From: an uncultured Gemmatimonadales bacterium
Lineage (GTDB): Bacteria > Gemmatimonadota > Gemmatimonadetes > Longimicrobiales > Gaopeijiaceae
Assembly: GCA_963809895.1 (NCBI GenBank)
Contig: CAWELD010000003.1
Span: 3,104,001-3,168,000 of the forward strand
Length of the DNA: 64,000 nt
Direction of reading: 5' to 3'
Part shown: one piece after another, positions 16,720 to 38,757 of the stretch
Layout of the letters: each line of letters starts with the position of its first letter
Numbering within the stretch: position 1 is the first letter of the stretch
Translations under genes and position numbers: made by a program
The notes under the pieces: model-generated
Databases searched by the model: none
Told to the model about the DNA's origin: nothing
The model's input: only the letters and a program-made list of their open reading frames with translations

Positions 16720-16853
16720 CCCGCGCTCGGCGCGAGCCCTGTCCCGGCGGTTCGCGGTTCGCGGTTCGCGTGGGAGCCAGCCGCCCTCGCTTCAGGCGTC
16801 GCCTGATTGGTGGCGCCTCCTCACCTCGGAGGTCGGGCCGGCCGCCGTACCGC

Positions 16854-16885
16854 TGTCGATTCCAGCCCCGCCCGTTCGTAGCAGG
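16854..16885 (+). promoter_or_regulatory. Putative ECF42 promoter
   Basis: TGTCGA-N17-CGTAG; near-identical to 19469-19500. Confidence 0.6.
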
Positions 16886-16981
16886 AGTGGGAGGAGCATT
16901 CCTCTCGCCCGTGGCTCTTGACATCCCGCTCGCTGGAGAGCCTCTCTGTACCACCGCGGAGAGAGCCCTCTCGGCGAGCCA

Positions 16982-19438: not shown

Positions 19439-19468
19439 CATCCGGAACGCGCTCGCCGGCCGTGCCTT

Positions 19469-19500
19469 TGTCGAATCCGGCGTCGCCCGTTCGTAGCAGG
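19469..19500 (+). promoter_or_regulatory. Putative ECF42 promoter of the yciI-sigma-yciI operon
   Basis: TGTCGA-N17-CGTAG about 50 nt upstream of the DGPF gene; TGTCGA is the -35 element described for ECF42. Confidence 0.7.
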
Positions 19501-19552
19501 GGTGAACGGCTGCCCATCCGGCGGCCACCCACGCGAGAGGAGATATTCCGAG

Positions 19553-19882
19553 ATGCACTACCTGGTTTCCGTGATCGATGACGGTACCGGCGCCGCCACT
19601 TCCGCCGAGATGGAGGCCATCGACGTATTCAACGAGCGGCTCCAGGCCGACGGTCACTGGGTCTACGCCAACGGCCTCGCAGCGCCCGACGCCGCCACCG
19701 TCGTCGATGGTCGCGGTGAGGAGCCCATCTTCACCGACGGTCCGTTCGTGGAAACCAAGGAGTACCTCGCCGGCTTCTGGATCCTCGAGGCGCCCGATCT
19801 CGATGCGGCGCTCGAGCTCGCCGCCGAGGGTTCGAAGGCCTGCAATCGCAGGGTCGAGGTCCGGCCAGTCCTGAGCGAGTAG
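19553..19882 (+). CDS. YciI/DGPF family protein
   Basis: TDGPFVETKEYLAGFW...VEVRP. Confidence 0.92.
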   Translation: MHYLVSVIDDGTGAATSAEMEAIDVFNERLQADGHWVYANGLAAPDAATVVDGRGEEPIFTDGPFVETKEYLAGFWILEAPDLDAALELAAEGSKACNRRVEVRPVLSE

Positions 19883-19884
19883 GC

Positions 19885-21153
19885 GTGCCTGACGTCGGCG
19901 AGGCGGTCACGCGGGCGCACCGGGACGAGTGGGCGCGGGTGGTCGCCGCGGTGGCCCGGCGCTTCGGCGATCTCGACATCGCAGAGGATGCCGCGGCCGA
20001 AGCGTTCGCAACCGCCGTGGAACGGTGGCGGGCCGACGGCGTCCCCCCCAATCCCGGTGCATGGCTCACCACCACCGCCATCCGCAAGGCCATCGACTGG
20101 GTCCGGCGTGAGAGCAAGCGCGACGACAGGCAGAAGACGGCCCACATGCTGTATGCACCGGACGCACCCGTGCCGGCGCCGCGCGAGGTGATCGAAGACG
20201 AGCGACTGCGTCTGATCTTCACCTGCTGTCACCCGGCGCTGGCCATGGAGGCGCGGGTGGCGTTGACGCTGCGCCTGGTGGGCGGTCTCACCGTTCCCGA
20301 GATCGCCCGGGCCTTTCTGGTACGCGAGACCACCATGGGGCAACGGATCACACGGGCCAAGGCCAAGATCAGGGCGGCTCGGATCCCCTTCCGGACGCCA
20401 CCCGCGAAGGATCTGCCGGCGCGTGTCTCCGGCGTGCTCGCCGTGCTCTTCCTGGTGTTCAACGAGGGATACCTGGCGAGCGGCGCCGACACGGATCCGA
20501 TCCGCGAGGACCTTACCGGCGAGGCGATCCGGCTCACCCGACTGATCCGCTTGCTCCTGCCCGACGACGGCGAAGTGGCCGGCCTGCTGGCGCTGATGCT
20601 CCTTACCGAGGCTCGGCGCGCCACCCGGGTGTCGCCAGAGGGCGAACTGGTCACCCTCGCCGAGCAGGATCGCAGCCGGTGGGACGCGTCGCTGATCGCC
20701 GAGGGTCACGCGCTGGTGCGCGAGCGACTGGCCAAGGGCGTCGCGCCAGGTCGATATCAGATTCTCGCGGCGATCAACGCCGTGCACACCGACGCCCAGC
20801 ACGTCCGCGACACCGACTGGCAGCAGGTCGTCGCGCTCTACGACCAACTGGTCGCGCTGGATCCGTCGCCGATCGTCGCCCTCAACCGGGCGGTGGCGGT
20901 CGCGGAGGTGGACGGCCCGGGCGCGGGACTCGCTGCGGTCGAGCCACTCGGAGATGCCCTGGCCGATTATCACGCCTACCACGCCACCCGGGCCGATCTG
21001 CTGCGCCGGCTGGGACGCACTCAGGCGTCGCGGGCCGCGTACGACAGGGCCATCGAGCTGACCGCCAACCGCGCCGAGGTTGCGTACCTCATACGACAGC
21101 GCGATCGGCTCGAGCGGGTCGAGCACGCATCTCACACGAAACGAGGAGACTGA
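19885..21153 (+). CDS. ECF42-type sigma factor with C-terminal TPR (DUF6596)
   Basis: AEDAAAEAF, LRLIFTCCHPAL, LVFNEGY, EQDRSRWD, ALNRAVA; flanked by DGPF genes. Confidence 0.93.
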   Translation: MPDVGEAVTRAHRDEWARVVAAVARRFGDLDIAEDAAAEAFATAVERWRADGVPPNPGAWLTTTAIRKAIDWVRRESKRDDRQKTAHMLYAPDAPVPAPREVIEDERLRLIFTCCHPALAMEARVALTLRLVGGLTVPEIARAFLVRETTMGQRITRAKAKIRAARIPFRTPPAKDLPARVSGVLAVLFLVFNEGYLASGADTDPIREDLTGEAIRLTRLIRLLLPDDGEVAGLLALMLLTEARRATRVSPEGELVTLAEQDRSRWDASLIAEGHALVRERLAKGVAPGRYQILAAINAVHTDAQHVRDTDWQQVVALYDQLVALDPSPIVALNRAVAVAEVDGPGAGLAAVEPLGDALADYHAYHATRADLLRRLGRTQASRAAYDRAIELTANRAEVAYLIRQRDRLERVEHASHTKRGD

Positions 21154-21156
21154 ATC

Positions 21157-21525
21157 ATGCCAAGGTATCTGGTAGCGGCGTACCTCCCCGACGACTACGA
21201 CCGGTCGGGCGAGAGCGAGGGGACGGCGGCGGCGATCCACGCGCTCAATGCCGACATGGAAGCGGCCGGCGCGCTGAAGTTCGCGTGTGGCGTGTCACCG
21301 GCCAGCGCCGCCAAGACGCTGAGAAAGGAGCCCGACGGCGAGGTGCTCGTCACCGACGGACCCTACATCGAGACGAAGGAACACATCGCTGGCTTCCTGC
21401 TGCTGGAGGCGGCGGACATGGACGAGGTGCTCGCGTGGGCACGGAAGGGTGCCGGGGTCCTGGCGGGACCGGTCGAGGTGCGGGAGCTCTACTTCCAGCC
21501 GGACCCGGGAGAAGCGACGGGGTGA
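21157..21525 (+). CDS. YciI/DGPF family protein
   Basis: VTDGPYIETKEHIAGF...VEVREL. Confidence 0.9.
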   Translation: MPRYLVAAYLPDDYDRSGESEGTAAAIHALNADMEAAGALKFACGVSPASAAKTLRKEPDGEVLVTDGPYIETKEHIAGFLLLEAADMDEVLAWARKGAGVLAGPVEVRELYFQPDPGEATG

Positions 21526-21596
21526 CGCCCGTCGGAGGCCTCCCGGGCCGGAGGCCTTCGCAGGACTCGCCGATCGCTGGCGCCCCGGGGTGGAGG

Positions 21597-21669
21597 CCCG
21601 GACATCCGGATCCTGGAGATCGCCGCGCGGCATCACCACAGCGGTGTGCGACTCTCGGGACCAGAACGC
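21597..21669 (+). pseudogene. Internally deleted remnant of the AbiEi-DUF559 gene (5' end joined to 3' end)
   Basis: 21597-21632 matches 26352-26387 at 35/36 nt; 21637-21669 matches 27209-27241 at 26/33 nt (manual alignment). Confidence 0.8.
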
Positions 21670-21805
21670 ACAGGTGCCGGGTTCCGCCGGACCCGAGACC
21701 GCCGGACCCGACGCCCGTGCGCGCGGGACACGGGAGACGCGCGGAACCCGTGAAACGCGCGAGGCTTCCCGGTCGAAGGCACGGGGGCAGAGGCCGCGGC
21801 GCGCG

Positions 21806-22053
21806 CATGATCGTCACCGCCGCGGGGGGCATGATCTTGGCGGCTGTGGACGACCATGGTCATGGCACTGCCAGGCGGACATGGTCTTTGCAGCCATCAA
21901 CCGTGAGGCCACCACCGGTCGGCTGCGAACGCCAGGATTATCATGGTGTCCGCCGCCCGGAACCTCTGCCACTCCCCCCGTGGCTGCGAACGCCAGGATA
22001 GTCATGGTCTCTGCAGCCATCCCCCCGGCCTTCCAGCGTCGCTGGCTGCGAAC
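21806..22053 (+). repeat. Palindromic 37-bp repeat mini-array, copy B, with upstream half-repeats
   Basis: Half units start at 21806, 21830, 21855 and 21880; full units 21921-21957 and 21982-22018; half unit 22044-22053. Confidence 0.9.
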
Positions 22054-22205
22054 CCCGCGCCGCGCGCGCCCGGCTACCGTCTGACACCCCGTCGTCCGCC
22101 ATCCCGGAGCCGACAGTGTCGGCGAGAGTGGCAGGGGTGTCCTGCGTTGCTTGGTGCCGGCGCATGAAGCTCTCCAGGCAGGTGCTCACGGAACCTGTCC
22201 GTCCG

Positions 22206-23702
22206 CTACACGCGCTCCGCCCAGGCCACGATGCCGCGGATCATGCCCTTGAAGATGAGGGCGTGGAGGGGATAGACGGCGTACCAGTACAGCAGCCCGG
22301 GAAGGCCGACGGGGTCGAAGATGGCGGTCTGACGTATGTTCGACCCTTCGGCGGTCGCGTTGACCTCGAACTGAAGCCAGGCGCGACCGGGTAGCTTCAT
22401 TTCGGCGTGCAGGCGGAGCAGTCGATCCTCCTCGACGGCCTCGACCCGCCAGAAGTCGACGGCGTCTCCGGGGCGGAGCCGGTCGGGATCGCGGCGGCCA
22501 CGGCGTGAGCCGACACCACCCACGAGGAGATCGAGGAAGCCCCGCAGCCGCCACAGCCAGTCGGCGTAGTAGTAGCCGTGGTCGCCGCCGATTCGCCGCA
22601 CGGCTGCGAACGCGCGGGCTGGGGGAACGGGCACCGACGCCGTGCGCGAGTCGACTCTCCGTAGCCCGAACGCGGCACCGCCGTACGGATGATCCGGTGG
22701 GGTCGACGGGAAGGCGTCGTTCCAGCGCGTCTCCGCAAGCTCGCGGTCCTCGTTGGCCAGGGCGCGGGCGATGGCCTCCGCGACCGGGCGCGGTGCGATC
22801 CCGGGAAAGAGCCGGCCCGCCGCGTCCGAGTCCACCACGGTCTCGTTGCGCAGGCTGTCGATGAGCTTGCGCCCGACCCGGGCGTAGAGCGGGGTCACCA
22901 GACCGAGCCAGAGGCTGGAGAGCCAGGGAGTCAGGACCGGAACGGGGATCATGAAACGGCGCAGGCCCCGCTGACGCGCGTACTCGAGCATGAGCTCGCG
23001 ATACGACAGCCGGTCCGGCCCCCCGACCTCCACCACGCGGCCACCGTCGGGGAGGGGGACCTCCAGCGCCGCGACCAGATAGGCGAGCACGTCTTCGATG
23101 GCGATGGGCTGCGCCCGCGTCGCGACCCAACGCGGCGTGATCATGATCGGGAGCTTCTCCACCAGCGACCGGAGCATCTCGAAGGACAGGCTCCCCGAGC
23201 CGAGGATGATGGACGCTCGAAACTCGAGGGTCGGGATGCCCGACGCCCGCAGGATCCTTCCCACCTCCTGACGGCTCTCCAGGTGCGACGACAGGCCGTC
23301 GCCCTCCCCCAGCCCGCCCAGGTAGACGATCCTGCGCACCCCTGCCGAGAGGGCCGCCGCCGCGAACCCCTCCGCCGCCCGGCGATCCCGCTCCCGGAAG
23401 TCGTCACCGGCGTTCATCGAGTGGATGAGGTAGTAGGCCGCGTCGACGTCCCGGAGCGGCTCGGCCAGCGAGCGCGGATCCAGCGCGTCACCCGCTGTGA
23501 CCTCGACACCGGCGGGCACCCGCGCCTGGAGGAACTGGGGGCGCCGAGAGATGCAGCGCACCGTGTGGCCTGCGTCCAGAAGCGGCCGCAGAAGCCGCCC
23601 GCCGACGTAGCCGCTGCCCCCCGTCACGAGAACCCGTAGGCGGCCGTCAGCGGGTGCCCGGTCCGGGAGGCGCTCCGGGGCCTCCATCGTGTCAGAGCTC
23701 AT
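22206..23702 (-). CDS. SDR-like NAD(P)-binding protein with DUF2867
   Basis: VLVTGGSGYVGGRL, AYYLIHSM, SSHLESRQEVG, GDAVDFWRVE, AEMKLPGRAWL. Confidence 0.92.
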   Translation of the reverse strand: MSSDTMEAPERLPDRAPADGRLRVLVTGGSGYVGGRLLRPLLDAGHTVRCISRRPQFLQARVPAGVEVTAGDALDPRSLAEPLRDVDAAYYLIHSMNAGDDFRERDRRAAEGFAAAALSAGVRRIVYLGGLGEGDGLSSHLESRQEVGRILRASGIPTLEFRASIILGSGSLSFEMLRSLVEKLPIMITPRWVATRAQPIAIEDVLAYLVAALEVPLPDGGRVVEVGGPDRLSYRELMLEYARQRGLRRFMIPVPVLTPWLSSLWLGLVTPLYARVGRKLIDSLRNETVVDSDAAGRLFPGIAPRPVAEAIARALANEDRELAETRWNDAFPSTPPDHPYGGAAFGLRRVDSRTASVPVPPARAFAAVRRIGGDHGYYYADWLWRLRGFLDLLVGGVGSRRGRRDPDRLRPGDAVDFWRVEAVEEDRLLRLHAEMKLPGRAWLQFEVNATAEGSNIRQTAIFDPVGLPGLLYWYAVYPLHALIFKGMIRGIVAWAERV

Positions 23703-24580
23703 CCCTTCCAGCCGGGCCGTCGCAACACCAACACCGGCGTCCGGTCCCGATATTCTCGATATTCCGGGTCGTCTCCCCACTTCATCCGGGCTCGTTCTTC
23801 CAGAGGGGGGATGCCGCTGATGCGGGTCAGCAGGAGAAGGACGAAGACCGGCGACACGAGCGTCACGTATCGCCAGCCTTCGAGCTCAGGAAGGGCGATC
23901 AGCGCCACACCGAACCAGAGCACGATTTCTCCGAAGTAGTTGGGGTGGCGTGACCACGCCCACAGGCCGCTCTGAATGAAACGCCCTCTGTTTTCCGGCT
24001 CTTCGCGGAATCGTCTCTTCTGGCGGTCGGCAACGACCTCGATGGAAAAGCCGATGGCCCAGATCAGGATACCGAACGCCGCAGCGACTCCCAGAGGCTG
24101 CGCGCCCTCGCCCGTAATGGCGGCCAGCGCGCACGCCAGGGTCAGGAAGACCCACAATCCCTGAAGGGTCCATGCCGCGAGGAAACGCGAAAAGCTGGAC
24201 CGCATTTCGTCGAAGCGAGCATCCTTCCCCTCACGGTTGATGCGCGCGAACAAGAAGGCACCGAGCCGAACCGCCCAGACCAGCACGAGCGCGCCCAGAA
24301 GGAGCGATCGGGCATCTTCCGCGTCTGACGCCACGAGCGCAGACACGATGACGGCCACGTACGTGAGGCTTCCGGTGAGGTCGAAGAAGCGCTCGGTGCG
24401 GGCTCGATACGACGGCACGAACACGATCCAGTTGATCGTGAACGCGAGCACCCCGCAGACGGTGAAGACCGGCAGTCGGCCCACCCTGACGCCCCCCTGG
24501 CTTCCCGCCCACGCGACCGCCGCCCCCACGGCCAAGACGACGGGGATGACGGCCAAAGCTCGTTGTTCGGGCCGATTCAT
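23699..24580 (-). CDS. DUF1295 (steroid 5-alpha reductase-like) membrane protein
   Basis: FFDLTGSLTY, DARFD, ADRQK, GLWAWSRHPNYFGE, SGIPPLE. Confidence 0.92.
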   Translation of the reverse strand: MNRPEQRALAVIPVVLAVGAAVAWAGSQGGVRVGRLPVFTVCGVLAFTINWIVFVPSYRARTERFFDLTGSLTYVAVIVSALVASDAEDARSLLLGALVLVWAVRLGAFLFARINREGKDARFDEMRSSFSRFLAAWTLQGLWVFLTLACALAAITGEGAQPLGVAAAFGILIWAIGFSIEVVADRQKRRFREEPENRGRFIQSGLWAWSRHPNYFGEIVLWFGVALIALPELEGWRYVTLVSPVFVLLLLTRISGIPPLEERARMKWGDDPEYREYRDRTPVLVLRRPGWKG

Positions 24581-25080
24581 GGTGCAGGCCTCACGTCCTG
24601 GACAGCGATAGGGTGCATCCACGAAGGGAGCGCAGCCGTTCTCCAGCGGACGCCGGGGACTTCGCCCGGTGCGCGGCCGCAGCCGTGCGCAACCCACAAT
24701 GGCGCAGCCGCGCGCCGGCACGCCACCGCTCCGGCCCTGGGGACCACGGCCATGGTCGCCGGCCCTCGCCGCGGTTAGACTCCGTTACGCCCTCGTCGGC
24801 GACCCGCTGGTTCCCCGCCCCGGAGAACGACGTGCCGAACGCCTTCACGATCTCCCGCTCCCACCTCTTCTCCACCTCGGACGTCGACCTCCGAAACGAG
24901 ATCACCGGCCACACGGGGAGCGAGACGGAGACCTCGAGCATTCTTCGGTCCATCGACCGCTTCGGTAGCGACACGTCGATCACCGGCTACCAGGTCCACC
25001 CCAGTCCGGCGCGAGCCACGCGTGTGGTTCCGGCCCGCGTCGCCTGGACGGTGCACGCACTGAGGGTATGAAGCGCGCGA

Positions 25081-25263
25081 TCAGCGCTCCGGGCGGCGGC
25101 GGATCCGGTTCTTCACCGAGTCGAAGCGGACGCCACGCATCCGCTTGACGCCGCTGCTCGTATCCTTGTAGACCCTTTTTCGGGTCGGGGGGCTTCCGTC
25201 CTCGTCGGACCAGAAGTAGGGGCTCGGTACGCCGTTCTTTCGGTCGATCTTCTTCCTGGCCAT
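25081..25263 (-). CDS. Small basic hypothetical protein (60 aa)
   Basis: MARKKIDRKNGVPSPYFWSD...; GGAG RBS; GC3-biased codons. Confidence 0.55.
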   Translation of the reverse strand: MARKKIDRKNGVPSPYFWSDEDGSPPTRKRVYKDTSSGVKRMRGVRFDSVKNRIRRRPER

Positions 25264-25325
25264 GGCTCGGCTCCGCTGTGCGGTGAGAAGGCTCCGTCGA
25301 TCGGTCGACCGGCGAAGATGGAGCA

Positions 25326-25655
25326 CTACCCTGCTTCGTCCGCGTCCGGATCGAGGTGGCCGTCCGTGGTGGACCTGCGCAGCTTCGCCACCTTGAGAGC
25401 CCAGTCGAGCTCACTTTCCGGACGATGATCCGGCATCCGGCCATCGGTCACGGCCCGGAGGAGATCCTCGGTCCTGTGGCGAAGCCCCTGATGATCCACG
25501 TGGGCGTGGCAGGCGTTCAGCAGATGGATGAGGCGGGCGATTTCGGCCTGATCGAGCCTGTGCGCCAGCGCCAGCGGCTCGATCCCGAGCTCTTCCGCTG
25601 CCGTCTGGATCGCCAGGACGGCGAACTGAGCGAGTTGGCCGTCGAGATCGTTCAT
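25326..25655 (-). CDS. Hypothetical protein
   Basis: ORF coupled (ATGA overlap) to the upstream gene. Confidence 0.6.
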   Translation of the reverse strand: MNDLDGQLAQFAVLAIQTAAEELGIEPLALAHRLDQAEIARLIHLLNACHAHVDHQGLRHRTEDLLRAVTDGRMPDHRPESELDWALKVAKLRRSTTDGHLDPDADEAG

Positions 25656-25951
25656 GGCACGTCCCACATCACAGGGGAAATCGGGCTGCTCCCGAGGGGG
25701 GATACCCGGATGTTGGCCGCAGATGCGAAGAACGGTGCCTTGCGCCCGTCGTCCATCGACAGCTCGAGCAGGCGCCCGCCCGAGCCCGTCCGGCCGAGGT
25801 GGCGCACCACCACGGCCGTCCCTTCGTGGGTCAGGACCCGCTCACCCGGCGAAGGCAGCCTGTCGGCGCCGCTCACCGATCCCGGGCAGCGCGCCGGGTC
25901 GACGCGCAGGGCGTTGATACCGCGGGGCCGCTCGATCATCGCGTCCTGCAT
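25652..25951 (-). CDS. Hypothetical protein
   Basis: MQDAMIERPRG...; GGAG RBS. Confidence 0.6.
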   Translation of the reverse strand: MQDAMIERPRGINALRVDPARCPGSVSGADRLPSPGERVLTHEGTAVVVRHLGRTGSGGRLLELSMDDGRKAPFFASAANIRVSPLGSSPISPVMWDVP

Positions 25952-26000
25952 CTCCAACTCTCCCGGGCCCGGGGGCCTCGTGTGCGGGCCAGGGAGAAAC

Positions 26001-26072
26001 AAAAAAAAACCCGGGCATCAGCGCCCAGGTTCGTTTCCTTTCTGGCATCCGGACCTTGCCGGATCGATTGCC
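26001..26072 (-). ncRNA. Candidate about 70-nt sRNA or attenuator leader ending in an intrinsic terminator
   Basis: Hairpin 26072-26044, then stem AACCUGGGC/GCCCGGGUU plus U-tract (26031-26001); upstream TTGACG-N17-GAGCTT (26108-26080). Confidence 0.45.
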
Positions 26073-26337
26073 GCTCTTGAAGCTCGCGGGACCCTCGGGG
26101 AGCGTCAAGGCACGGTCACGCCCGCATCGTCTCGAGGAAGACGCCCGTTCGGGCAGCCGTGCCGAGGACGGCCGCGGCGGTGGCTCTGCGAGCGACTCCG
26201 CCGGCCGATACCCGAAGGGGGCAGCGCCGCTGCCGAGCCGGCGCGTCCGAGTCGCCGCGGCCACGCTGCGGGCTCGGGCGGTTCCCCATGTCGCATCCCG
26301 CCATGGCTTCGCCCTGGAGAGCCGATGATTCTCCGGT

Positions 26338-27252
26338 GTGAGTGCCATCCACCCGGACGTCCGGATCCTGGAGATCGCCGCGCGGCAGCATGGCGTGGTC
26401 GCCCGCAAGCAGCTGCGTGAGGCGGGGCTGTCGCGAGGTGCCGTAGAGTATCGGCTCCGGAAGGGGGTCCTTCGAGCCCTGCACCGAGGTGTCTACCGCA
26501 CCGGACCGACGACGCCGCAGTACCAGGCGGAAGCCGCCGCGCTGCTGGCGTGTGGCGAAGATGCCGTGCTCACCCACAGGACGGCAGCCGGCATCCTGGG
26601 CATCATTCCCGAGCCCCGGCCCGAGCAGCCCATCGATGTCTCCGGCCCCCGCAGCCTGCGCGGTCCGCGCTCCGGTGTCCGGCTCCACCGCGTCGGACGG
26701 CTGCCCGACGACGAGGTCGAGCGCCGGCACGGGCTGGTCGTCGCCGCTGGGCCGCGGACGATCCTGGACCTCGCCTCCTGTCTCGGGCCCTACGACCTCG
26801 AGCGCGCCCTGGCGCGGGCCGAGCGGCGGGATCTGGTCACCCTCGATCGGGTCCGGGCCATCGCCGACCGGCATCCCCGCCGACCAGGCCGCGGAAGGCT
26901 ACAGGCCCTCCTCGACGACATCGCGGAACCGGCGCTCACCCGCTCGCCACCGGAGCGCCTGCTCCTGAAGAGGCTGCGCAGGGCGGGCGTCCCGCGGCCC
27001 AGGGCCAACGCCAGGATCCACGGCATGGAGGTGGATCTGCTGTTTCCGGACTACCGGCTGGCCGTGGAGATCGACGGCTACGCTTTCCACCGCCAGCGGC
27101 CGGCCTTCGAAGACGATCGCGGCCGCGGCGCCGCTCTCGCAGCCCGGGGGATCATGGTCCTGCGCTTCACCCCACGACAGCTCAAGACGGAACCCGACAA
27201 GGTGCTCGCACAGCTGTGTCTGGCTCTCGGTGCCAGGACGCCGACGCGCTGA
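26338..27252 (+). CDS. AbiEi_4-like wHTH plus DUF559 (Vsr-like PD-(D/E)xK) nuclease
   Basis: AARQHGVVARKQL..LHRGVY; THRTAA; RTILDLA; TRSPPER; EVDLLF...LAVEIDGYAFH...DRGR...VLRFT. Confidence 0.9.
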   Translation: MSAIHPDVRILEIAARQHGVVARKQLREAGLSRGAVEYRLRKGVLRALHRGVYRTGPTTPQYQAEAAALLACGEDAVLTHRTAAGILGIIPEPRPEQPIDVSGPRSLRGPRSGVRLHRVGRLPDDEVERRHGLVVAAGPRTILDLASCLGPYDLERALARAERRDLVTLDRVRAIADRHPRRPGRGRLQALLDDIAEPALTRSPPERLLLKRLRRAGVPRPRANARIHGMEVDLLFPDYRLAVEIDGYAFHRQRPAFEDDRGRGAALAARGIMVLRFTPRQLKTEPDKVLAQLCLALGARTPTR

Positions 27253-27380
27253 AGTCCCGCCTGCCAGGGACCGTGGCGCGCGGGGCCCGTGAGACGCAGA
27301 GATCCGACCGACGCGAGGGGCAGGTGAGACACGAGTCGCTTCTCGGTCGGCCGGGATAAGGACTGCGGCCGAAGTGCGAA

Positions 27381-27518
27381 CATGGCCGTCACAGCCGCCA
27401 GGCGGACGTGGTCTTCGCAGCCTTCAACACTCGGACCACTACCCGAGGGCTGCGAACGCCAGGATTATCATGGTGTCCGCCGCCCGAGACCTCCAGCGCT
27501 CCCCCCGCGGCTGCGAAC
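27381..27518 (+). repeat. Palindromic repeat mini-array, copy C, truncated
   Basis: Half units at 27381 and 27407; full unit 27448-27484; next unit stops after GGCTGCGAAC (27509-27518). Confidence 0.9.
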
Positions 27519-27595
27519 AACAATGTAATATATTTTGGACATCTAGTCGTAAATATCTTACTATTCGTTTGGACCAACCTCAACTGGAGAACGCC

Positions 27596-28153
27596 ATGAG
27601 CAGCATCCTCTGGTCGGTGGGAGCGCTGGTGGCGGGCAGCCTGATACTCTGGATCGTCGCCCGCTCCGTGATGTCCCGCGTTCCCGACTTCTCCGACGGC
27701 GGGAAGCCGCCGTCTACGCACCTTCAACGGGCGGCCCGCTGGAGCCTGTTTCTGGCGGGGACACCGGTCCTTGCCGTCGCGCTCATGCTCGCCGTGTTCG
27801 GTCTGGAGCGAGCAACAGAAGACGCAGGCCTTCGCTTCACACTGTACGGGCTCATCCTGGTGTCCCTCCTTGCCGCCGGCGGCGGAGCGTGGTGGGTCGC
27901 AAGACGCGGCCGGGCGCCTGCGGGCGGTATCGTACTGGATGAACGGGACCGCGCGATCCTCGAGCGCGCCCCGGCCGTGCAGTCGGTTACCACTATCCTC
28001 GTGCTGGCTGCTTGGACGGTCCTTCTCACCGAGCACTTTTCGGCCACCGGAGCGGTACCCCTGGTCTGGCTCCAGCTCGTCTTCTGGTCGTGTGTGACGG
28101 TGAACGCGCTCGGGCTGCCAGCGGGGGTGCTCATGGGGTACCGGAAGGGGTGA
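27596..28153 (+). CDS. Multi-pass membrane protein (DUF2178-like DERD motif)
   Basis: About 5 TM segments; VLDERDRAI motif; paired with XRE HTH. Confidence 0.75.
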   Translation: MSSILWSVGALVAGSLILWIVARSVMSRVPDFSDGGKPPSTHLQRAARWSLFLAGTPVLAVALMLAVFGLERATEDAGLRFTLYGLILVSLLAAGGGAWWVARRGRAPAGGIVLDERDRAILERAPAVQSVTTILVLAAWTVLLTEHFSATGAVPLVWLQLVFWSCVTVNALGLPAGVLMGYRKG

Positions 28154-28154
28154 G

Positions 28155-28379
28155 ATGGACACCGATCAGCTCAGAAACGACATCCGTCGACATCGCTTCG
28201 AGCGCAACGAGATGACGCAGCAGGAGCTGGCCGATGCCGCCGGTTGTTCACGGCAAACCATCGTGATGCTGGAAAAGGAGCGCTACAGTCCCTCGCTCGG
28301 ATTGGCCATGAAGATCGCCCGCGTCTTCGATGTGAGGGTGGACGATCTCTTCTGGCTCGACGGGGACGAAGACACATGA
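28155..28379 (+). CDS. XRE-family HTH regulator
   Basis: MTQQELADAAGCSRQTIVMLEKERYSPSLGLAMKIARVF. Confidence 0.93.
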   Translation: MDTDQLRNDIRRHRFERNEMTQQELADAAGCSRQTIVMLEKERYSPSLGLAMKIARVFDVRVDDLFWLDGDEDT

Positions 28380-28401
28380 TCAACCATGGCCGGAAGGCGG
28401 A

Positions 28402-28602
28402 CCTGGCCGTCACAGCCGCCAGTGCGAACATGGTCTTCGCAGCCGCCAACCGTCGGGCCACCACCCGATGGCGGCGAATCCCAGGATTATCATGGTGTCC
28501 GCCGCCCGCGACTCCCGCCGCACCCTCCGCGGCTGCAAACGACAGGATAGTCATGGCCTTCGCAGCCTTCGCCCTTCCCCACTTCCATCTCTGGCTGCGA
28601 AC
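28402..28602 (+). repeat. Palindromic repeat mini-array, copy D
   Basis: Half units at 28402 and 28429; full units 28470-28506 and 28531-28567; half unit 28593-28602. Confidence 0.9.
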
Positions 28603-28686
28603 CCCACGCCGGGCACGACCATATTGTGGAACCGGGACGACCTGAAGTCCTGGCACGATCGGGGTCGGGTCTCTCATTCTTCTCGG

Positions 28687-31374
28687 ATGTCTGACCCCAT
28701 TACCCGTCTCAACCTCGCCCTCTCCGACCGCTACCGCATCGAGCGCGAGCTCGGCGAGGGCGGTATGGCCACGGTCTATCTCGCCCAGGACCTCAAGCAC
28801 AAGCGCTCGGTCGCCCTCAAGGTGCTCAAGCCCGAGCTCGCCGCCGTGGTGGGAGCAGAGCGGTTCCTGGCCGAGATCGAAACCACGGCGAACCTGCAAC
28901 ATCCCCACATCCTCCCGCTGTTCGATTCGGGCGAGGCCGACGGTTTCCTCTATTACGTCATGCCGTATATCGAGGGTGAGTCGCTCCGAGAACGGCTGGA
29001 TCGGGAGGGGCAGCTCCCGGTGGAGGAGGCAGTCCGACACGTCTCGGACGTGGCAGAAGCCCTGGGCCACGCTCACCGCCGAGATGTGGTCCACCGCGAC
29101 ATCAAGCCGGCCAACATCCTCATCCAGGACGGTCGGCCCGTGGTCGCCGACTTCGGGATCGCGCTCGCCGTGGGGAGCGCCGGAGGCGCACGCCTGACCG
29201 AGACCGGTCTCAGCGTCGGCACGCCGTACTACATGAGCCCCGAACAGGCCATGGGCGACGCCCCGGTGAGCGCCGCCAGCGACATCTACGCCCTGGCGTG
29301 CGTCCTCTACGAGCTCCTCGCCGGCGAGCCACCCTTCACGGGCGGCACCGCCCAGGCCGTCCTGGCCAAGATCATCACGGGGGGACCACCCTCGATCCTC
29401 GAGGTGCGGTCCGCGGTGCCGCGAAACGTGGACGCAGCGATCCGTCGCGCCCTCGAGCGGGTCCCCGCCGACCGCTTCCCTTCCGCGAAGGCGTTCCGGG
29501 AGGCGCTGGCCGATCCTTCCTTCCGCTATGGCGAGGATCCTGAGGCGACCGCTGGGCATCCCTCGCGTCGTCTTCGACTCGTCACCGCCGGCGCTCTCGC
29601 CCTCTCGGTGGCTACGACCGCGGTAGCGGTGGGGGCTTTCACCCGGCTGTCGGAATCACGAGGTCCCACGCGGGTGTTGACCCAGGAGCTGACCCTCGGG
29701 ATCGGCGCGCCCCGGACCAGCTTGAATATCGCCGAAGTGTCCGACGACGGCCGCTGGATTGCGTACAACGGCAGCGACCAGAGGGGCGTCGCCTCGATCT
29801 ACGTCCGGAACGTGACGGAGCAGGCGGCGAGGCTGCTGCCCGGTACGCGAGACGCGCGCCGTATGGCCATTTCGCGGACGAGCGACGAAGTCGCGTTCAC
29901 ACAGATATCCCTCGGACCGTTGAAGGTCGTATCTCTCGAGGGCGGGCCGGTACGGGTCCTGGCCGAGGGCGCCCAGGCGCGACCCGTCTGGGGGGACGAG
30001 CACATCTACTTCGTCAACGCCGAGCTCGGGATCAGCCGCGTACCCATCGAGGGCGGGGCGGTGGAACGGGTGACACCGGTCACGGACGACGGCGTGGTCC
30101 GAGCTCCCACCGACGTGTTGCCCGGGCGCGACGTCGTGATCTTCACCGAGTTCTCCCGCGGAGGGGGGGACGAAACGGTCCGGGCCCTTTCGCTCGCTTC
30201 GGGGGAGATGAAGACGCTCGCCGACGGAGCCGGAGGTGTCGTGAGAGACGGCGTCCTCCTCTTCGCCGCCGCATCGCAGGACGGCCTCGAGGCCGTCCCG
30301 ATCGACCCTGAGACCCTGGATGTAGCGGGCAAGCCGGTCACGGTGGCCACCGGGCTCGTCTCCGTCGGCCCCCTCTTCGGCGGGTTGCTGTTTCGCGTGA
30401 GCCAGTCTGGCGACCTGATCTACGGCATGGCCGGGCAACGCGAGGAGAGCGTGACTCATCCGGTGTGGGTCGATCGGTTGGGAAACGTCACCACCATCGC
30501 GACCGAGTGGCGCGTCTCGCCCGTGATCTCCGTGTCCTCGCTCGCTCTGTCACACGACGGCACCCGTCTCGCGGCGTCCAGCGGAGGAGCGGGCCAGAAC
30601 GACCTGGAGCTCTTCATACAGGATCTGCAGGGAGGACCTCTCCGGCGAATCGCCTTCGACGAGCCGATCAGCACCCGTCCCTTCTGGAGCCCGGACGACC
30701 AGGAAGTCTACTACTTCGAGGACCCCAGCGGGTCGTTCCTCGAAGGGAACCTCGTGGCCCGGCGGGCCGATGGAAGTGGTGATGCCCGCATCATCGTGCC
30801 CGACGTGGGCATCGGAGACGGGGCGTGGAGCCGGGACGGCGCCTGGATGGTCTTCCGGGTCGGTGTGCCGGCCCGCCCGAGCCGGGACATCTTCGCGCTC
30901 CGGGCGGGCACCACCGAGCCCATCGAGCTGGTGGCCACCGACGCCACCGAGCAGGCCCCGTCCCTGTCGCCGGACGGAAGGTGGCTCCTCTACCAGTCCG
31001 ACCGGACCGGGCAGCACGAGGTCTACGTGCGCCCCTTCCCCGAGGTCGACGACGGCCTCCAGCAGATCTCGCTCGACGGAGGGACCGAGCCGCGCTGGGC
31101 CCACTCCGGTCGGGAGATCTTCTATCGGGACGATGAGGGACGCATGGTGGCGGTACAGGTGGAGGCGGGCGACCGAGAGCTGCAGACGTTGGATCACGAC
31201 GTGCTCTTCGATGCCACCCCCTTCTGGTCGGACCCTGCTTCGCAGCAGTACGATGTCGCGCCCGACGACCAGAGGTTCCTGATGCTGCGAGGCGAAGCCG
31301 GTCGCAACAATCTCGTCGTGAGCTGGAACTGGTTCGAGCGGACCAGGCACTTGATCCAGGAGGCGAACCGGTAG
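28687..31374 (+). CDS. Hanks-type Ser/Thr kinase with TM and TolB/PD40 propeller
   Basis: GEGGMATVY, VALK, HRDIKPANIL, DFG, GTPYYMSPE; SPDGRW repeats. Confidence 0.95.
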   Translation: MSDPITRLNLALSDRYRIERELGEGGMATVYLAQDLKHKRSVALKVLKPELAAVVGAERFLAEIETTANLQHPHILPLFDSGEADGFLYYVMPYIEGESLRERLDREGQLPVEEAVRHVSDVAEALGHAHRRDVVHRDIKPANILIQDGRPVVADFGIALAVGSAGGARLTETGLSVGTPYYMSPEQAMGDAPVSAASDIYALACVLYELLAGEPPFTGGTAQAVLAKIITGGPPSILEVRSAVPRNVDAAIRRALERVPADRFPSAKAFREALADPSFRYGEDPEATAGHPSRRLRLVTAGALALSVATTAVAVGAFTRLSESRGPTRVLTQELTLGIGAPRTSLNIAEVSDDGRWIAYNGSDQRGVASIYVRNVTEQAARLLPGTRDARRMAISRTSDEVAFTQISLGPLKVVSLEGGPVRVLAEGAQARPVWGDEHIYFVNAELGISRVPIEGGAVERVTPVTDDGVVRAPTDVLPGRDVVIFTEFSRGGGDETVRALSLASGEMKTLADGAGGVVRDGVLLFAAASQDGLEAVPIDPETLDVAGKPVTVATGLVSVGPLFGGLLFRVSQSGDLIYGMAGQREESVTHPVWVDRLGNVTTIATEWRVSPVISVSSLALSHDGTRLAASSGGAGQNDLELFIQDLQGGPLRRIAFDEPISTRPFWSPDDQEVYYFEDPSGSFLEGNLVARRADGSGDARIIVPDVGIGDGAWSRDGAWMVFRVGVPARPSRDIFALRAGTTEPIELVATDATEQAPSLSPDGRWLLYQSDRTGQHEVYVRPFPEVDDGLQQISLDGGTEPRWAHSGREIFYRDDEGRMVAVQVEAGDRELQTLDHDVLFDATPFWSDPASQQYDVAPDDQRFLMLRGEAGRNNLVVSWNWFERTRHLIQEANR

Positions 31375-32241: not shown

Positions 32242-32630
32242 CCGATGTGGACCGCAGGAGGTCCAGGCTGTGCGGATCCCGCACCTGCCCCCCACACAGC
32301 ATGCAGCACTGCTTCGTGGAGCTCCGGGAGGACGTGGACCCACCCGTCCTGTTACGCGCGCCCCAAAGCCCACGCCACATGCTCCCGCACCAGAGACTCC
32401 GGATCCTCCAGCGCCTCCCGCAACACCTCCACCGCCTCCTCCGGCGGCTCGTCCACCGAAGCCAGCCAGTTCCCCATGGCCACCGCGACGTTGCGCTTGA
32501 ACCCGGCGTAGCCCGCCCGCCGAATCGCCGAGCCACGCGAGAACGCGTCCCAGTCCTCGCGGGTCATCCGCATCAGCTCCACCAGCGACGGCGCATAAGT
32601 CCCCGGATGCGGGGGATTACCGACACCCGA

Positions 32631-32707
32631 CGTTTCAACTGAAAGATTCTCTTCGGTCAGCCCGGGATCGGCCCGGCCTCTACCATCGCGCGTTTCAGCT
32701 GAAACGC
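32631..32707. promoter_or_regulatory. Two parS-like palindromes 60 bp apart
   Basis: GCGTTTCAGCTGAAACGC (32690-32707, perfect) and CGTTTCAACTGAAAG (32631-32645). Confidence 0.4.
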
Positions 32708-32803
32708 TCCTCCGCCGGGAACCCCTCCACCCAGAAGGGCAGCTCCCCCGCCCCCCGCGCCGCATACCCCGGCTCCGCGCTCACCTCCGCGAAGCGCACG
32801 TTG

Positions 32804-32821
32804 AACGGACACACCTCCTGG
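32804..32821 (+). repeat. att core, left copy (AACGGACACACCTCCTGG)
   Basis: Identical to 41997-42014; flanking bases differ on both sides. Confidence 0.92.
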
Positions 32822-32904
32822 GAGGATTGCCCACTTCCGCGTTACGGGATTTCGCTGAGTACGGGCGATTCAAACAGGGATCGGGCGAATGCTGATCCTG
32901 ACGC

Positions 32905-34024
32905 TCATTCGTGAAGAAGGAGTTCTCGGGCTTCCTGCATTGCCAGGGCTGCTTCCTCTTCACTCAGTCGGATGACGAGATTCCCGGAGGGCTGATCCCC
33001 CAGCCATGGACGCATGTGTTTCCGCCACAGGTCGTAGAGTACAGGCGGGTCAACCGGCACCGGATAGGATCCAAGCGCGAAGGAGCGTCGCGTTCTCGCA
33101 TCATCGTCGAGCTGTTCCCAGTCTTCGGCTGTCGCCCGAAGGCCTGCCTTCAGATCCTGACCGGTGACGAAGGACTGCTCCGCTCCGGTCAGTTGCGGAG
33201 CAAGAAGGCGGTGAACTCGGTCGTCGGAAGCGAGCACATGGGCAAAGGGCATGTAGAAGAGGTACTGCAGGTCGATGAGGTGGGTAGCTCGATCAGAAAG
33301 GAACCGGTGACGTACGGCGATCGCGAGTGAGAGCAGGCACCGAATGCAATGGGCAGCGTACGGGGCGTACTCCTGAGCGTAGGTGAAACCAGAGGCCTGC
33401 CATTGCCGTCTTGCTTGTACCCGTTCAGGCTCGCGAGTTATCAGGGTCTGGAGGGCCCACTCGAACCACACGTCCTGAAGCGCCGTCACCGCCAGCAGGT
33501 CATCCGCGATCAGAACGATTCGAGATTCAGAGTCTGGACGGGGGAGAACGACACGGTTCTCGTTCAGGTACCGCGAAAGAGACGCGACGGAGGCCGAGCG
33601 CAGTGAGCCGCCGCCAGTACGCCGACATCTCAGCCTCTGATTCCGTGAACTGCCCCTGCGACCAGCGGAGGATCGCCTCGTTGAGCGGCGACAAGTCGAT
33701 GTGGACGCCACCTGAGCTGCTCTGGAAGAAGTTGTCGGGAAGGATCTGCCCCGTCATGGGAACCACTCCGCCCAGGAGATCGACGCGGGCGAGTTCCCGA
33801 TACGGGGCGTTCACGGGCCCTCCACTCCCACCGAACTTCCTTGCGAGCGTGGCGACCGCATCGGCGGGCCGTTTGCCGGCTGCCACATCCTTCGTGAGGT
33901 CTCCCAGCACCTCGTAGACGAGCACTGGCGTGATGTTCGGGTACAGATGCTGGAACACCACCACGTGCTCCCTCGCAGAGAGAGCCTGGAACGCTGACTT
34001 GTCGAAGATCGTGATCGGCCCCAT
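32905..34024 (-). CDS. Hypothetical, possibly PIN-like nuclease; one indel near 33600
   Basis: N-terminal TIFDKS and VYEVLGD; C-terminal IDLQYLFY...VLASDDRVH; joins ORFs 33527-34039 and 32905-33711. Confidence 0.6.
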
Positions 34025-34119
34025 GGGCCTTACCTCCACCTCGGGGCCGGTTGAGCTGGCCGATCACTTCCGTGTGGGTTTGCCGCCGCCGGTCAGCCAG
34101 TCAGGGTAGGCCCATCCAG

Positions 34120-36639
34120 TCACGGCAGTCGCGATTCGATCTCTACCTGGGCGGCGGATCGCACCTGCGCTTCTATCTCGGCTTCAACAGCAGTGTATAG
34201 GTCGATCTCCTCCTCGGGAGCGCGGATGCTCACGACGAGCGAGTACCGGGCGGGGAGGTGGTAGCGGTCCATGGCCACGTCGTCCTTCCACCATCCGCCA
34301 ACGGGGTAAATGCCAATGGCGTTTCGGTGAGCCAGGTCGGCTGCGGTCCCTCGCCAGACGTCCGAGTGGATTGAGCCGGAGTTCCTGACGCGCGTGTGGA
34401 GGTCCCAGCGGTCCGAATCTGCCGGACGTACCACGTCGACGTCATCCGACCGCTCAGCTCCACTCAATCGAGCCCGGAACTCGTCGTCCGTCTCGAGCGG
34501 ATGCTTAGCCTCGAACCTGAGGCCGTGCGAAGCATACTGATACCGTCGCTTCCAGCCCCTGTCACCGGGCCTTGGTTCGATGAAGTAGCTGAGCGTGACG
34601 CGCATTTCTACCTCGACCTCCCCGAGGTCGAGCATGAGGTCTTGCGGCCACGGCAGCGGATGAATGTGCATCTCTCGCGTACGCGCGGCTGCGCCGTTCC
34701 GCTCATACGGGCGAAGTTCATCTTGCGCCACGAGGGTGAGGTCATTCCTGGCGCTGTAGAGCGCCCTTTCGAGACTCGGCACGCCATACCCGAAGCGCCT
34801 GAGCAGCGTCTGCTTGTCGAGCAGCCTCAGGGTGCGCACGTCCGCACGCGACCTGGCTCCGGCGCGCCGTAACATGGCTGGTGTCCACTCGGCCGAGTGC
34901 ACAATGAGCGCCCGGATAGTTTCCGGCCATGCATTTGGAAGCTCGGCCGTCAGGTGGCCCGCGAGCTGCGCCGCAAGCGCGGAGGCCGCGCTCGTGGCCC
35001 CGAAGGGGCGATACAGCGCGAGCGCGAGCTGGTTGTTGGTTGTCAGCAGGCTCAGGTCATCGTGTGAGACGGCATGCCGACCGTTCACGATGAGGTTGCC
35101 ACCTTCAAGGACAACGTCCGGCTTGCTCGGCCATGACCTGTCCCACGGGACGGCAGTGCGACTCGTCGGGCACAGGTCTCCCGCGTCGGCCAATGGGGTT
35201 GCGTGCTGGACGGCCGGGTCCACGATGTTGACCCGTTCAGTGAACGCCCCCACGGTGAGAGCGTTCCACGCTTGGGCGGGGCTCTGGATGCCCGCGATGT
35301 CGTTCGCGTCAAGGTAGCCGGCCGGCGTGATCTGGTCCTCGTGCAGGTTACCGGCGGCGACGACGATAAGCCGCCGCGGCTCTCCGTCACCTCCGAAGGC
35401 CATTTGATCCAGTGCCGCCGACCACGAAGACGGCGTACCCCCGTCGTTCGCCGTTTCGGTCGTGGCAAGACAGACAACGCGGCGTCTATGCGGGGCCTGA
35501 GCCTCGGCGCGTGCAACACCCTCCTGCGTGATCGCACCGTAGAGTTCCGGCGGGTTCTGGCCAGATGGAGGGAGGATCTTGACGGCCTCGAGGCGATGCG
35601 TTCGGCGGACGGCGCCAGCCCCAGCAAGCACCCCCGTGAGATCACCGAACGCAGCGAGACCGGCCATGCCCGTGCCGTGTCCGCGCCATCGCGCTGCGTC
35701 ATCGGCCACGCCCCAACCCGGTTCGACCGTGTGTTGGTCGGCGGCCGCCAGAATATCTTCGAGGAGCGGATGCTCACGATTCGCCCCGCTGTCGAGCACC
35801 GTCACAGCTGTTTCGGATTCGACCGGACCGAGGCGCTCCCGCAGGTCCTCGGCCCACGCGGCTTGCTCGCGTGCGGGGAGGTCCAGAAAGAACGTCGGGA
35901 CATCGCCCGCGAGCCTGACCTCAGCGAAGGCAAGCGACTCATGCATGAGCGCAGATAGCCGCTCTGGCGTCGCCAGAGCCAACACCACCTCGCGACCTGG
36001 AAACGTGAGGAAGTGGGGCCGAACCGTGATCTCCAGAGTTCCGGCTGCCGCGAGGAAGACGTCTCGGCGCCCACTCCGGAGCCAGACTTCCCACCACGCT
36101 TCCTGATGAGGCGGTGGGAATGATTCCTGATCCCCCACGTAGATGGAGCGAAGCTCGGCCAGTCGAGCCGTTTCCATCCGCGTAACGAGCCGCTCGTTCC
36201 TTGGGCGTCCGCTACGGCTGTCCTCTCTGGTTCGGTATGCCTCTACCTTGCGGATGATCCGGTCTCCAGAGTCCTGAGGCACGAACAGCGTCGCGACAAG
36301 CTGGTCCTGTTCTTCGTCCGCTCGCGCCGACAGGAGTTCGATATTTCGGACCCGGTGTTCCAAGCTCTGCAGGACCGCTTCCTCACCCGACGGCAACCTG
36401 ACTTCCAAGTAGTATCCGAGTTCGTCGTTCGCGAACTCCGTCCTACGGTTCTCGAGAACCACGTCCCCCTCGGCGAACGCCTCTCGCAGTGCAGTCTCGA
36501 GCGCACGAGCGTGCGCCTCACGATTCCGAGCGGGGTTCGGGGGGTGCTCTATGGGTGGGCCGGGCGGGCGGGTGTACGGAGCAGGTTCGCCGCCGCCTTC
36601 GCGGTAGAAATGCGGAAGGTCGCGAGGGTACACAAGCAC
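34120..36639 (-). CDS. S8 subtilisin-like peptidase (IetS-like)
   Basis: Catalytic triad motifs VLDSG, HGTGMAG, GATSAASA; AAGN; KPDVVLEGGN; directly downstream of AAA ATPase. Confidence 0.93.
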   Translation of the reverse strand: MLVYPRDLPHFYREGGGEPAPYTRPPGPPIEHPPNPARNREAHARALETALREAFAEGDVVLENRRTEFANDELGYYLEVRLPSGEEAVLQSLEHRVRNIELLSARADEEQDQLVATLFVPQDSGDRIIRKVEAYRTREDSRSGRPRNERLVTRMETARLAELRSIYVGDQESFPPPHQEAWWEVWLRSGRRDVFLAAAGTLEITVRPHFLTFPGREVVLALATPERLSALMHESLAFAEVRLAGDVPTFFLDLPAREQAAWAEDLRERLGPVESETAVTVLDSGANREHPLLEDILAAADQHTVEPGWGVADDAARWRGHGTGMAGLAAFGDLTGVLAGAGAVRRTHRLEAVKILPPSGQNPPELYGAITQEGVARAEAQAPHRRRVVCLATTETANDGGTPSSWSAALDQMAFGGDGEPRRLIVVAAGNLHEDQITPAGYLDANDIAGIQSPAQAWNALTVGAFTERVNIVDPAVQHATPLADAGDLCPTSRTAVPWDRSWPSKPDVVLEGGNLIVNGRHAVSHDDLSLLTTNNQLALALYRPFGATSAASALAAQLAGHLTAELPNAWPETIRALIVHSAEWTPAMLRRAGARSRADVRTLRLLDKQTLLRRFGYGVPSLERALYSARNDLTLVAQDELRPYERNGAAARTREMHIHPLPWPQDLMLDLGEVEVEMRVTLSYFIEPRPGDRGWKRRYQYASHGLRFEAKHPLETDDEFRARLSGAERSDDVDVVRPADSDRWDLHTRVRNSGSIHSDVWRGTAADLAHRNAIGIYPVGGWWKDDVAMDRYHLPARYSLVVSIRAPEEEIDLYTAVEAEIEAQVRSAAQVEIESRLP

Positions 36640-36651
36640 GTCAGCCGATCG

Positions 36652-37774: not shown

Positions 37775-38757
<983 letters not shown>

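Follow-up and report, generated by a model that had tools for sequence, protein, structure and literature searches.

An intact gene for a 304-aa protein, in which an AbiEi-like DNA-binding part is fused to a predicted nuclease domain (DUF559), is paired with its own family of dispersed, palindromic, noncoding repeats in the genome of an uncultured Gemmatimonadales bacterium. The linkage of the gene to the repeat family and a code relating residues of the protein to bases of the repeat are well supported, and we further infer that the system involves binding, cutting, regulation, and spread. The gene-repeat feature is real, lies outside the known families, and is undescribed in the searchable literature. 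The window (the whole stretch of DNA analyzed, 64,000 nucleotides) carries the following features of the system:

16546-16722, plus strand: array A, a full element that stands alone (palindromes at 16587 and 16648)
21597-21775, plus strand: decayed, internally deleted copy of the gene, in which 39 nt from the 5' end run directly into the 3' end and linker
21880-22056, plus strand: array B, a full element with palindromes at 21921 and 21982
26293-26337, plus strand: promoter-like motif, CCATCC.GCCATGG...GCCC followed by a -10-like hexamer (nAnnnT) whose end is ~5 nt upstream of the start codon
26338-27252, plus strand: AbiEi-DUF559 gene, an intact ORF with a GTG start (304 aa; predicted domain order, winged helix-turn-helix [wHTH] with recognition helix H3 at residues 33-42, AbiEi C-terminal domain, Vsr/EDxHD nuclease domain)
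27367-27406, plus strand: degenerate leader of array C, common to array D and partly to array B
27407-27518, plus strand: array C, gene-linked and truncated, consisting of a half-site, a 24- to 25-nt spacer, a 37-bp palindrome (27448-27484), a spacer, and a half-site
27519-28387, plus strand: two-gene cargo (185-aa membrane-like protein and 74-aa HTH_3 regulator) between the direct copies C and D
27536-27564: sigma-70-like promoter of the cargo pair
28429-28605, plus strand: array D, a full element with palindromes at 28470 and 28531

A reading of this DNA from its sequence alone had described an intact wHTH-nuclease (DUF559) gene followed by array C, a deleted recurrence of the gene-linker-array unit at 21597-22053, arrays A and D standing alone, and the lack of an adjacent AbiEii toxin partner, and our analysis bears out each of these descriptions. 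The leader of array C begins ~115 to 125 nt past the gene stop (27367/27377), and the first clear arm is at 27407. The deleted copy matches the intact unit in three segments, namely, 21597-21635 with 26352-26390 (95% over 39 nt), 21637-21775, comprising the 3' end and linker, with 27209-27349 (68%), and the array part, 21851-21991, with 27377-27518 (82%). A BLAST search of the gene region against the genome gave only this copy at 21597 nearby, with no gene remnant near array A or D. No AbiEii gene adjoins the AbiEi-DUF559 gene; its downstream neighbors are the ORFs for the 185-aa protein (membrane-like by eye) and the 74-aa HTH_3 protein, and the AbiEii matches of the genome sit on C3 at 1.88 and 3.61 Mb. 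All four arrays, A, B, C, and D, are in one orientation.

The protein is a predicted sequence-specific nuclease

Pfam searches placed AbiEi_4 at residues 9 to 54 and DUF559 at residues 220 to 295, together with an MTES_1575 match at residues 208 to 296 that falls under the Pfam curated cutoff. A two-domain AbiEi fold is predicted across the first ~195 residues: an AlphaFold2 model built from 95 sequences (pLDDT 90.4, pTM 0.69) matched full-length AbiEi (PDB code 6y8q; E = 3.9e-6) in Foldseek, as well as the nuclease domain of I-Bth0305I (3r3p; E = 2.5e-4). A profile search recovered 3hrl and 3r3p, and neither the Pfam nor the profile and fold searches gave a match to Y1 (HUH). In the alignment of 95 homologs, E244, D246, H251, and D260 are invariant, a pattern that fits the EDxHD motif (PMC3239194). 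The closest homologs come from sources named as Gemmatimonadota, which places the organism in that phylum. The sequence-only reading had suspected that the motif DRGRG, where DRxRD is more typical, could affect activity. This concern is not upheld: position 264 varies freely among 29 close orthologs (G in 13, D in 12, S in 3, and A in 1 by eye count) and D260 is invariant, and we therefore do not regard DRGRG as a lesion. The dN/dS values of 0.13 to 0.27 (28 pairs among 8 orthologs) indicate purifying selection. We predict that the protein is a sequence-specific DNA nuclease.

The repeat element has a fixed geometry

The repeat is an imperfect 37-bp palindrome (18+1+18), with spacers of ~24 nt giving a period of 61 bp. 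The usual element, of ~180 bp, reads half-site, spacer, palindrome, spacer, palindrome, spacer, half-site. It occurs at 15 loci in the genome, with two full palindromes in 13 of them, three in one, and a single one in array C; the arrays begin and finish in half-palindromes, and 13 of the 15 comprise three arm-spacer-arm units. None of the 15 copies overlaps a gene called by our own codon-bias caller. Identity between copies is 81% in the palindromes, a value inflated by the choice of copies for their likeness to the consensus, 43 to 52% in the spacers, and 30% in the flanks. The palindrome pattern has 28 matches in the genome versus 0 for a reversed control, which is beyond chance, and 398 of 401 genomes of the class are without any match to it.

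The same geometry recurs in other subfamilies of AbiEi-DUF559 proteins with different repeat sequences. We scanned the flanks of family genes for palindromes flanked by half-sites at various periods and recovered a period of 58 to 65 at 30/83 Gemmatimonadota loci, versus 2 to 6/83 for neighboring periods, and at 21/107 other loci (mostly actinobacterial where named); for control genes, the count was 3/250. When the scan was repeated on 105 new loci, leaving out those with a match of <700 nt, this period was found at 28/80 Gemmatimonadota loci, against 1 to 3/80 for other periods, and at 3 of 25 other loci, against 0 to 1 of 25. The spacers measure 23 to 26 nt in 152 of 156 cases and share no common sequence; a conserved base at the spacer center, sought across families, was not found. 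A link to Dcm/CCWGG sites was considered and dropped, since other subfamilies are without a CCWGG sequence.

Two variants of this organization deserve mention. The repeat family of a paralog on C5 (G000:C5:21300-22576 and 17 further loci) has terminal inverted repeats unlike its internal palindromes and a period of 62 to 63 bp. Downstream of the sister-subfamily genes L308 and L310, 61-bp units that are almost identical are repeated in tandem over long stretches, which suggests that they were amplified recently.

Gene and repeat family are linked

The same array is found 60 to 570 nt downstream of the gene in 7/7 close orthologs (78 to 83% identity) with fetched DNA. These seven are the ones with DNA context out of roughly 30 close proteins; six were linked by BLAST and the seventh (L103/L002) by the scan, and L003 and L163, which are one locus, were counted once. 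The array is on the downstream side of the gene in all eight genomes of the clade. Among the 401 genomes of the class, a close ortholog is present in two and the palindrome in three, including both of these, and no palindrome match was seen in the 26 class genomes that have distant paralogs only. The third genome, G029 (95% complete, 250 contigs), has one array and no cognate gene that we could find. Palindrome matches are few in the genomes of the orthologs, numbering 0 to 4 versus 28 here.

The genome encodes three other intact paralogs, each with its own repeat family by BLAST: that of the C5 paralog has 18 loci, that of the paralog at C3:3.02 Mb has 8 matches, of which 3 are in tandem, and that of the paralog at C3:3.056 Mb consists of 3 weakly similar loci. 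A frameshifted paralog on C10 has no repeat family that BLAST could find in the genome. In the sister subfamily L308-L310 (57 to 60% identity), the outer arm is kept and the inner arm is changed. Across loci, likeness of the palindromes declines with protein distance (Mantel rho = -0.30, P = 0.0005, n = 42), also with the window's own clade collapsed (rho = -0.22, P = 0.0015); as neighbors are coinherited, this result is by itself no proof of function. Pairwise BLAST of flanks was not relied on as evidence, since many diverged arrays escape it and simple synteny also gives matches; its matches fall on 13/31 pairs at ≥70% protein identity, 2/10 at 60 to 70%, and 8/3279 below.

It had been proposed that the gene and the hairpins may form a REPtron-like system built on a different nuclease fold, with co-occurrence of close homologs and the repeat across Gemmatimonadota as a check. 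The pairing itself is supported by the linkage in the close orthologs and the covariation of protein and repeat described below; the suggestion that the hairpins guide the protein is not supported. Co-occurrence is borne out in all seven close orthologs. The strict scans detected no array at 53/83 and 52/80 Gemmatimonadota loci, about two-thirds of the homologs. Counting against the linkage are G029, with an array but no cognate gene that we could find, and the small number of palindrome matches in the genomes of the orthologs.

Helix-3 residues predict the bases of the palindrome arms

Residues in helix 3 of the protein covary with arm bases across two phyla. In a comparison of all residue columns with all arm positions over 62 loci, four helix-3 pairs were among the top seven. 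The helix-3 window, which was picked after the column scan had been seen, was the best of all windows at identity cutoffs of 70% and 60% (P = 0.003 and 0.007), and its signal in this training set fades at 55% and 50% (P = 0.05 and 0.57). Seven candidate residue-base rules were carried into a test on new loci, for which we used 27 of 31 array-bearing new proteins, sharing <70% identity with the training set and among themselves. Here, D/E37 went with C(-7) in 35/36 half-sites versus 5/18 (P = 0.0004), Y/H38 with A(-2) in 9/14 versus 7/40 (P = 0.01), and R38 with C/G(-2) in 25/32 versus 9/22 (P = 0.02). These three rules also hold at a 60% cutoff, and a K/G37 rule holds at 70% only; the R34, R33, and R164 rules did not repeat in the independent set. 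Over the merged set (78), the E37:-7 pair ranks first out of 289 × 18 (z = 11.1; maximum over 100 shuffles, 10.7), and it keeps this rank at cutoffs of 60% and 55%, though inside the shuffle range. In the protein encoded in the window, residues 37 and 38 are E and Y, and the corresponding bases in its arms are C(-7) and A(-2).

In AbiEi, helix 3 of the wHTH is reported to be the DNA recognition helix, and the protein binds inverted repeats (PMC7319586). That helix-3 residues predict arm bases points to direct reading of DNA by the protein. Thus, judging from sequence covariation, the 304-aa protein likely reads its own 18-bp palindrome arms in duplex DNA directly, via its winged-helix domain.

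A promoter-like motif is shared with competence and recombination genes

The motif at 26293-26337 begins 45 nt before the start codon; its -10-like hexamer has A in 88% and T in 87% of the 81 training loci. It was trained on copies of the AbiEi-DUF559 gene in other genomes only, and a search of this genome gave 61 sites scoring ≥13 bits, with all five paralogs among the 45 sites listed. We picked, from the listed sites (e.g., C3:474013, C3:442540, C3:1503042, and C3:264748), 20 downstream genes for Pfam searches. Nine of these encode ComEC, a ComEA-like protein, ComM, YraN, a PilB-like protein, RadC, SSB, RecQ, and RecX, where we take Mg_chelatase to be ComM, UPF0102 to be YraN, and HHH_3 to be ComEA; one of the 20 heads a run ending in dprA, and the remainder include two integrases, one Uma2 protein, and seven unrelated or unassigned genes. 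At the eight top motif sites examined, most had no sense gene close behind.

In other genomes, the motif precedes comM in 4/4 and 16/28 cases, often at exactly -45, versus 0/28 inside the gene and 3/500 background genes; it exceeds the threshold at radC in two of four genomes and at comEC in none of the four. It is present at 101 of 146 Gemmatimonadota loci of the AbiEi-DUF559 family, which are partly the training set, and at 0/121 loci outside this set. As comM itself is found in 342/401 genomes (a tally that includes the unpublished G473), its co-occurrence with the AbiEi-DUF559 gene is uninformative. In the single-contig genome G024, scored as 100% complete, comM, radC, comEC, and the AbiEi-DUF559 gene were all unmatched at the thresholds used. 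ComM and YraN act as a helicase and nuclease pair in transformation, and genes of this kind are commonly coregulated (PMC13663708).

The sharing of this motif between the gene and com/rec genes suggests, at the sequence level, that the AbiEi-DUF559 gene is under competence control, and the motif is predicted to be a leaderless, competence-type promoter. A DNA damage regulon would also fit, as radC, ssb, recQ, recX, and the integrases are compatible with it too. The literature search returned no description of a competence promoter in Gemmatimonadota, for which the motif is itself a candidate.

Distribution of the element and array-free junctions

The AbiEi-DUF559 family is patchy across genera, occurring in 86/401 genomes of the order, with one intact gene copy per subfamily in this genome; it was found on 1 of 72,556 plasmid records and on 0 of 50,697 phage records. 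The gene is free-standing and intergenic in 8/8 genomes, and in 5/8 it lies near queG or a queG 3' remnant (queG, guaA, and the RidA-like neighbor of guaA were named by eye). Arrays within 12 kb of the gene number 4 of the 15 here, and such clustering is also seen in G058.

Empty sites in sister genomes had been proposed as a check. At the junction of guaA and the RidA-like gene, this genome has a 1.4-kb insertion made up of an array, a second-family array, and a cargo gene. The array is absent in 7/7 congeners matched, and in four of them the two genes adjoin each other. This is no clean empty site that would define the ends of the element, because the insertion also holds the cargo gene and the second repeat family. 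No congener keeps both flanks of the array at C10:535290 together, no array-free paralog of any flank pair was detected in the genome or the fetched loci, and no target-site duplication was evident by eye in the flanks of the copies. In one pair of copies, the flanks are alike over 135 + 43 nt (94 to 95%), and two copies of the repeat of a paralog carry 47 to 54 nt of gene-adjacent flank, including the promoter motif.

Thirteen sequencing runs contain part of the window at 20500-30000, none of them half of its words, and their contigs gave no trustworthy joint that skips an array. A metagenome scan with the single AbiEi-DUF559 protein returned nothing, and one with the protein alignment returned distant relatives only (27 to 45% identity).

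Several rearrangements were noted on the way. The cargo gene and second-family array are duplicated as a unit at 80% identity (L050:1425-2850 and G000:C3:3081791-3082700), and at guaA this unit is in tandem with a first-family array. L168:5914-7170 holds a further copy of the gene and array together with the 3' end of queG; it is truncated, lies ~10 kb from the intact copy in L166, and has an integrase-like and IS-like segment in place of its 5' half. Fragments of the queG 3' end are also repeated in L168, so that queG looks like an integration hot spot.

Proposed mechanism and competing explanations

The account that we favor, to which we give slightly better than an even chance, is that the gene encodes a sequence-specific nuclease made during competence, which cuts at the arrays and so causes them to be copied through repair and recombination. 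The protein would read the 18-bp palindrome arms in double-stranded DNA through its winged-helix domain, and its gene would be switched on alongside DNA uptake (competence) genes. The nuclease would nick or cut at the arrays, and repair and recombination would then copy the ~180-bp noncoding element to new intergenic sites, sometimes with flanking DNA. The covariation of helix 3 near the palindrome center and the ending of arrays in half-sites make arm-spacer-arm a possible unit; this working unit, of ~60 bp, would allow the nuclease domains of two monomers to meet over a spacer of fixed length and free sequence. This dimer geometry is an inference on our part. I-Bth0305I is reported to act as a dimer, contact up to 60 bp, and cut a pseudopalindrome (PMC3239194). 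A bolder version, which we hold to be doubtful, would see selfish or domesticated elements of this kind across phyla, in which a competence-wired AbiEi-Vsr nuclease acts as a zinc finger nuclease-like dimer, with two decodable winged-helix readers bound to 18-bp arms and nuclease domains that cut across a fixed 24-bp spacer; transformation would then spread the arrays and capture cargo between them.

The strongest competitor, still an unlikely one, is a domesticated recombination aid, in which the array-bound protein would serve the host by processing DNA in the course of natural transformation, e.g., by marking integration sites, with the arrays spreading as a by-product and adjoining captured cargo. 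It would account for the motif common to comM, yraN, comEC, and comEA, the near absence from mobile elements, the proximity to queG, the purifying selection on the gene, the bracketing of variable cargo by arrays in the same orientation (C-cargo-D), and the clustering of arrays near the gene. Such an aid is harder to square with a family so patchy beside the near-universal comM and with several paralogs with different repeats in one genome, plus decayed copies; patchiness, coexisting paralogs, and decayed copies suggest a selfish element instead. We think it improbable that the arrays are operators only, that is, AbiEi-type autoregulatory sites of a fused antitoxin-nuclease or defense protein whose nuclease acts on another substrate, with the dispersed copies arising by ordinary duplication. 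AbiEi and Rv2827c do bind inverted repeats in their own promoters (PMC7319586), the array lies between motif and gene in 11/16 loci with both an upstream array and the motif, and the flank shared by one pair of copies would suit duplication. Against this weigh the downstream position of the array throughout the clade, the 15 and 18 copies of fixed size at a distance from the genes, and the better conservation of arms than of spacers and flanks.

The least probable of the explanations, to which we give very little weight, is an RNA-associated system, where RNA made from the array, either by itself or together with the gene, would supply units serving as guides or scaffolds for the nuclease. The repeat-spacer anatomy with its fixed spacer length recalls such systems, and in both gene layouts the promoter motif mostly lies ahead of the array, which makes cotranscription with the gene possible. 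As a single strand, array C folds modestly better than shuffles (z = -2.7), but the full array B does no better than they do (z = -1.4), and Rfam gave no match up to an E of 1 in the window at 16000-29000. The spacers are homologous by position across genomes (0.38 to 0.51 at the same position versus 0.27 to 0.37 at other positions, in a table where array D was parsed wrongly), implying divergence by mutation, and 42 spacers searched against their own genome gave just 4 off-array matches at ≤3 mismatches, none exact. A CRISPR- or TIGR-like guide array was set aside on these grounds. The RNA run X12 (contigs of a long-RNA library) had none over the gene or arrays C and D, which we do not count as evidence. 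The proposal that the protein is guided by these hairpins thus finds no backing in the spacers, and helix-3 residues of a DNA-binding fold predict the repeat bases.

Comparison with known systems

Bacterial miniature inverted-repeat transposable elements (MITEs) are short, fixed-size, noncoding elements with dyad symmetry. The repeats resemble them in being fixed-size noncoding dyad elements and in the presence of an internally deleted derivative of the gene unit; they differ in that there is no linked DDE transposase, no target-site duplication was seen, and the palindromes are internal and periodic. There is also a likeness to REPIN-RAYT systems (Bertels & Rainey 2011, PMC3116915; Bertels et al. 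2017, PMC5581495), which have one chromosomal enzyme gene per repeat family with a cognate copy beside it. Their inverted-repeat units contain a spacer and are scattered through extragenic DNA, a genome may hold several families, and the enzyme is rare on plasmids or phages. Despite this REPIN-like pairing, we do not assign the system to REPIN-RAYT, whose defining enzyme is an HUH/Y1 tyrosine transposase; here an AbiEi fold with a Vsr/EDxHD nuclease is predicted instead. Further differences are the geometry, which is fixed (18+1+18, 61-bp period) across two phyla, evidence that points to helix-turn-helix reading, presumably of duplex DNA, low copy numbers (15 to 18 at most in this genome), and the competence-type promoter motif.

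With EDxHD homing endonucleases (I-Bth0305I, 3r3p), the protein shares the nuclease fold and the E-x-D..H..D motif, and the contact of up to 60 bp reported for the I-Bth0305I dimer matches the arm-spacer-arm length. There is, however, no intron or intein around the gene, an AbiEi DNA-binding part takes the place of their NUMOD repeats, and the sites seem to belong to the element itself and not to an empty allele; the free-standing, intergenic position of the gene in all eight genomes likewise led us to reject a homing endonuclease gene. The type IV antitoxins AbiEi and Rv2827c (6y8q; PMC7319586) have the two-domain fold predicted here and bind paired inverted repeats via their wHTH, whereas our protein has a nuclease fusion, and its repeats are downstream and genome-wide. 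A type IV AbiE pair was rejected, as the AbiEi fold is there and an adjacent AbiEii is not.

Our literature search found no work naming both AbiEi and DUF559, and no description of the pairing of an AbiEi-DUF559 gene with repeats in the titles and abstract openings searched. No function has been assigned to the large family of AbiEi-DUF559 proteins; the locus gives each of them a predicted substrate and so opens the family to direct testing. Hundreds of natural protein-repeat pairs with one geometry would provide a recognition code and possibly a source of long-site nucleases. The system would mean that the REP/RAYT pattern, whose role has long been in question, has been arrived at a second time by unrelated means, and it would tie the spread of repeats to natural transformation.

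Other observations in the window

On the minus strand at 25998-26330, an intrinsic terminator-like hairpin and U-run (26032-26007) precede three small ORFs (25951-25081), a leader/attenuator-like arrangement without an Rfam match; exact RNA contigs of run X12 cover these ORFs at 25209-25665 and 25705-25938. A full queG-like gene (41696-42895) and a duplicated 3' fragment of it (32352-32820) flank an island (32352-42895) in which a recombinase, an AAA ATPase, and an S8 peptidase were recognized by eye. A 51-nt direct repeat (80%) occurs at 16839-16889 and 19454-19504, upstream of an ABC-permease gene and of the next operon.
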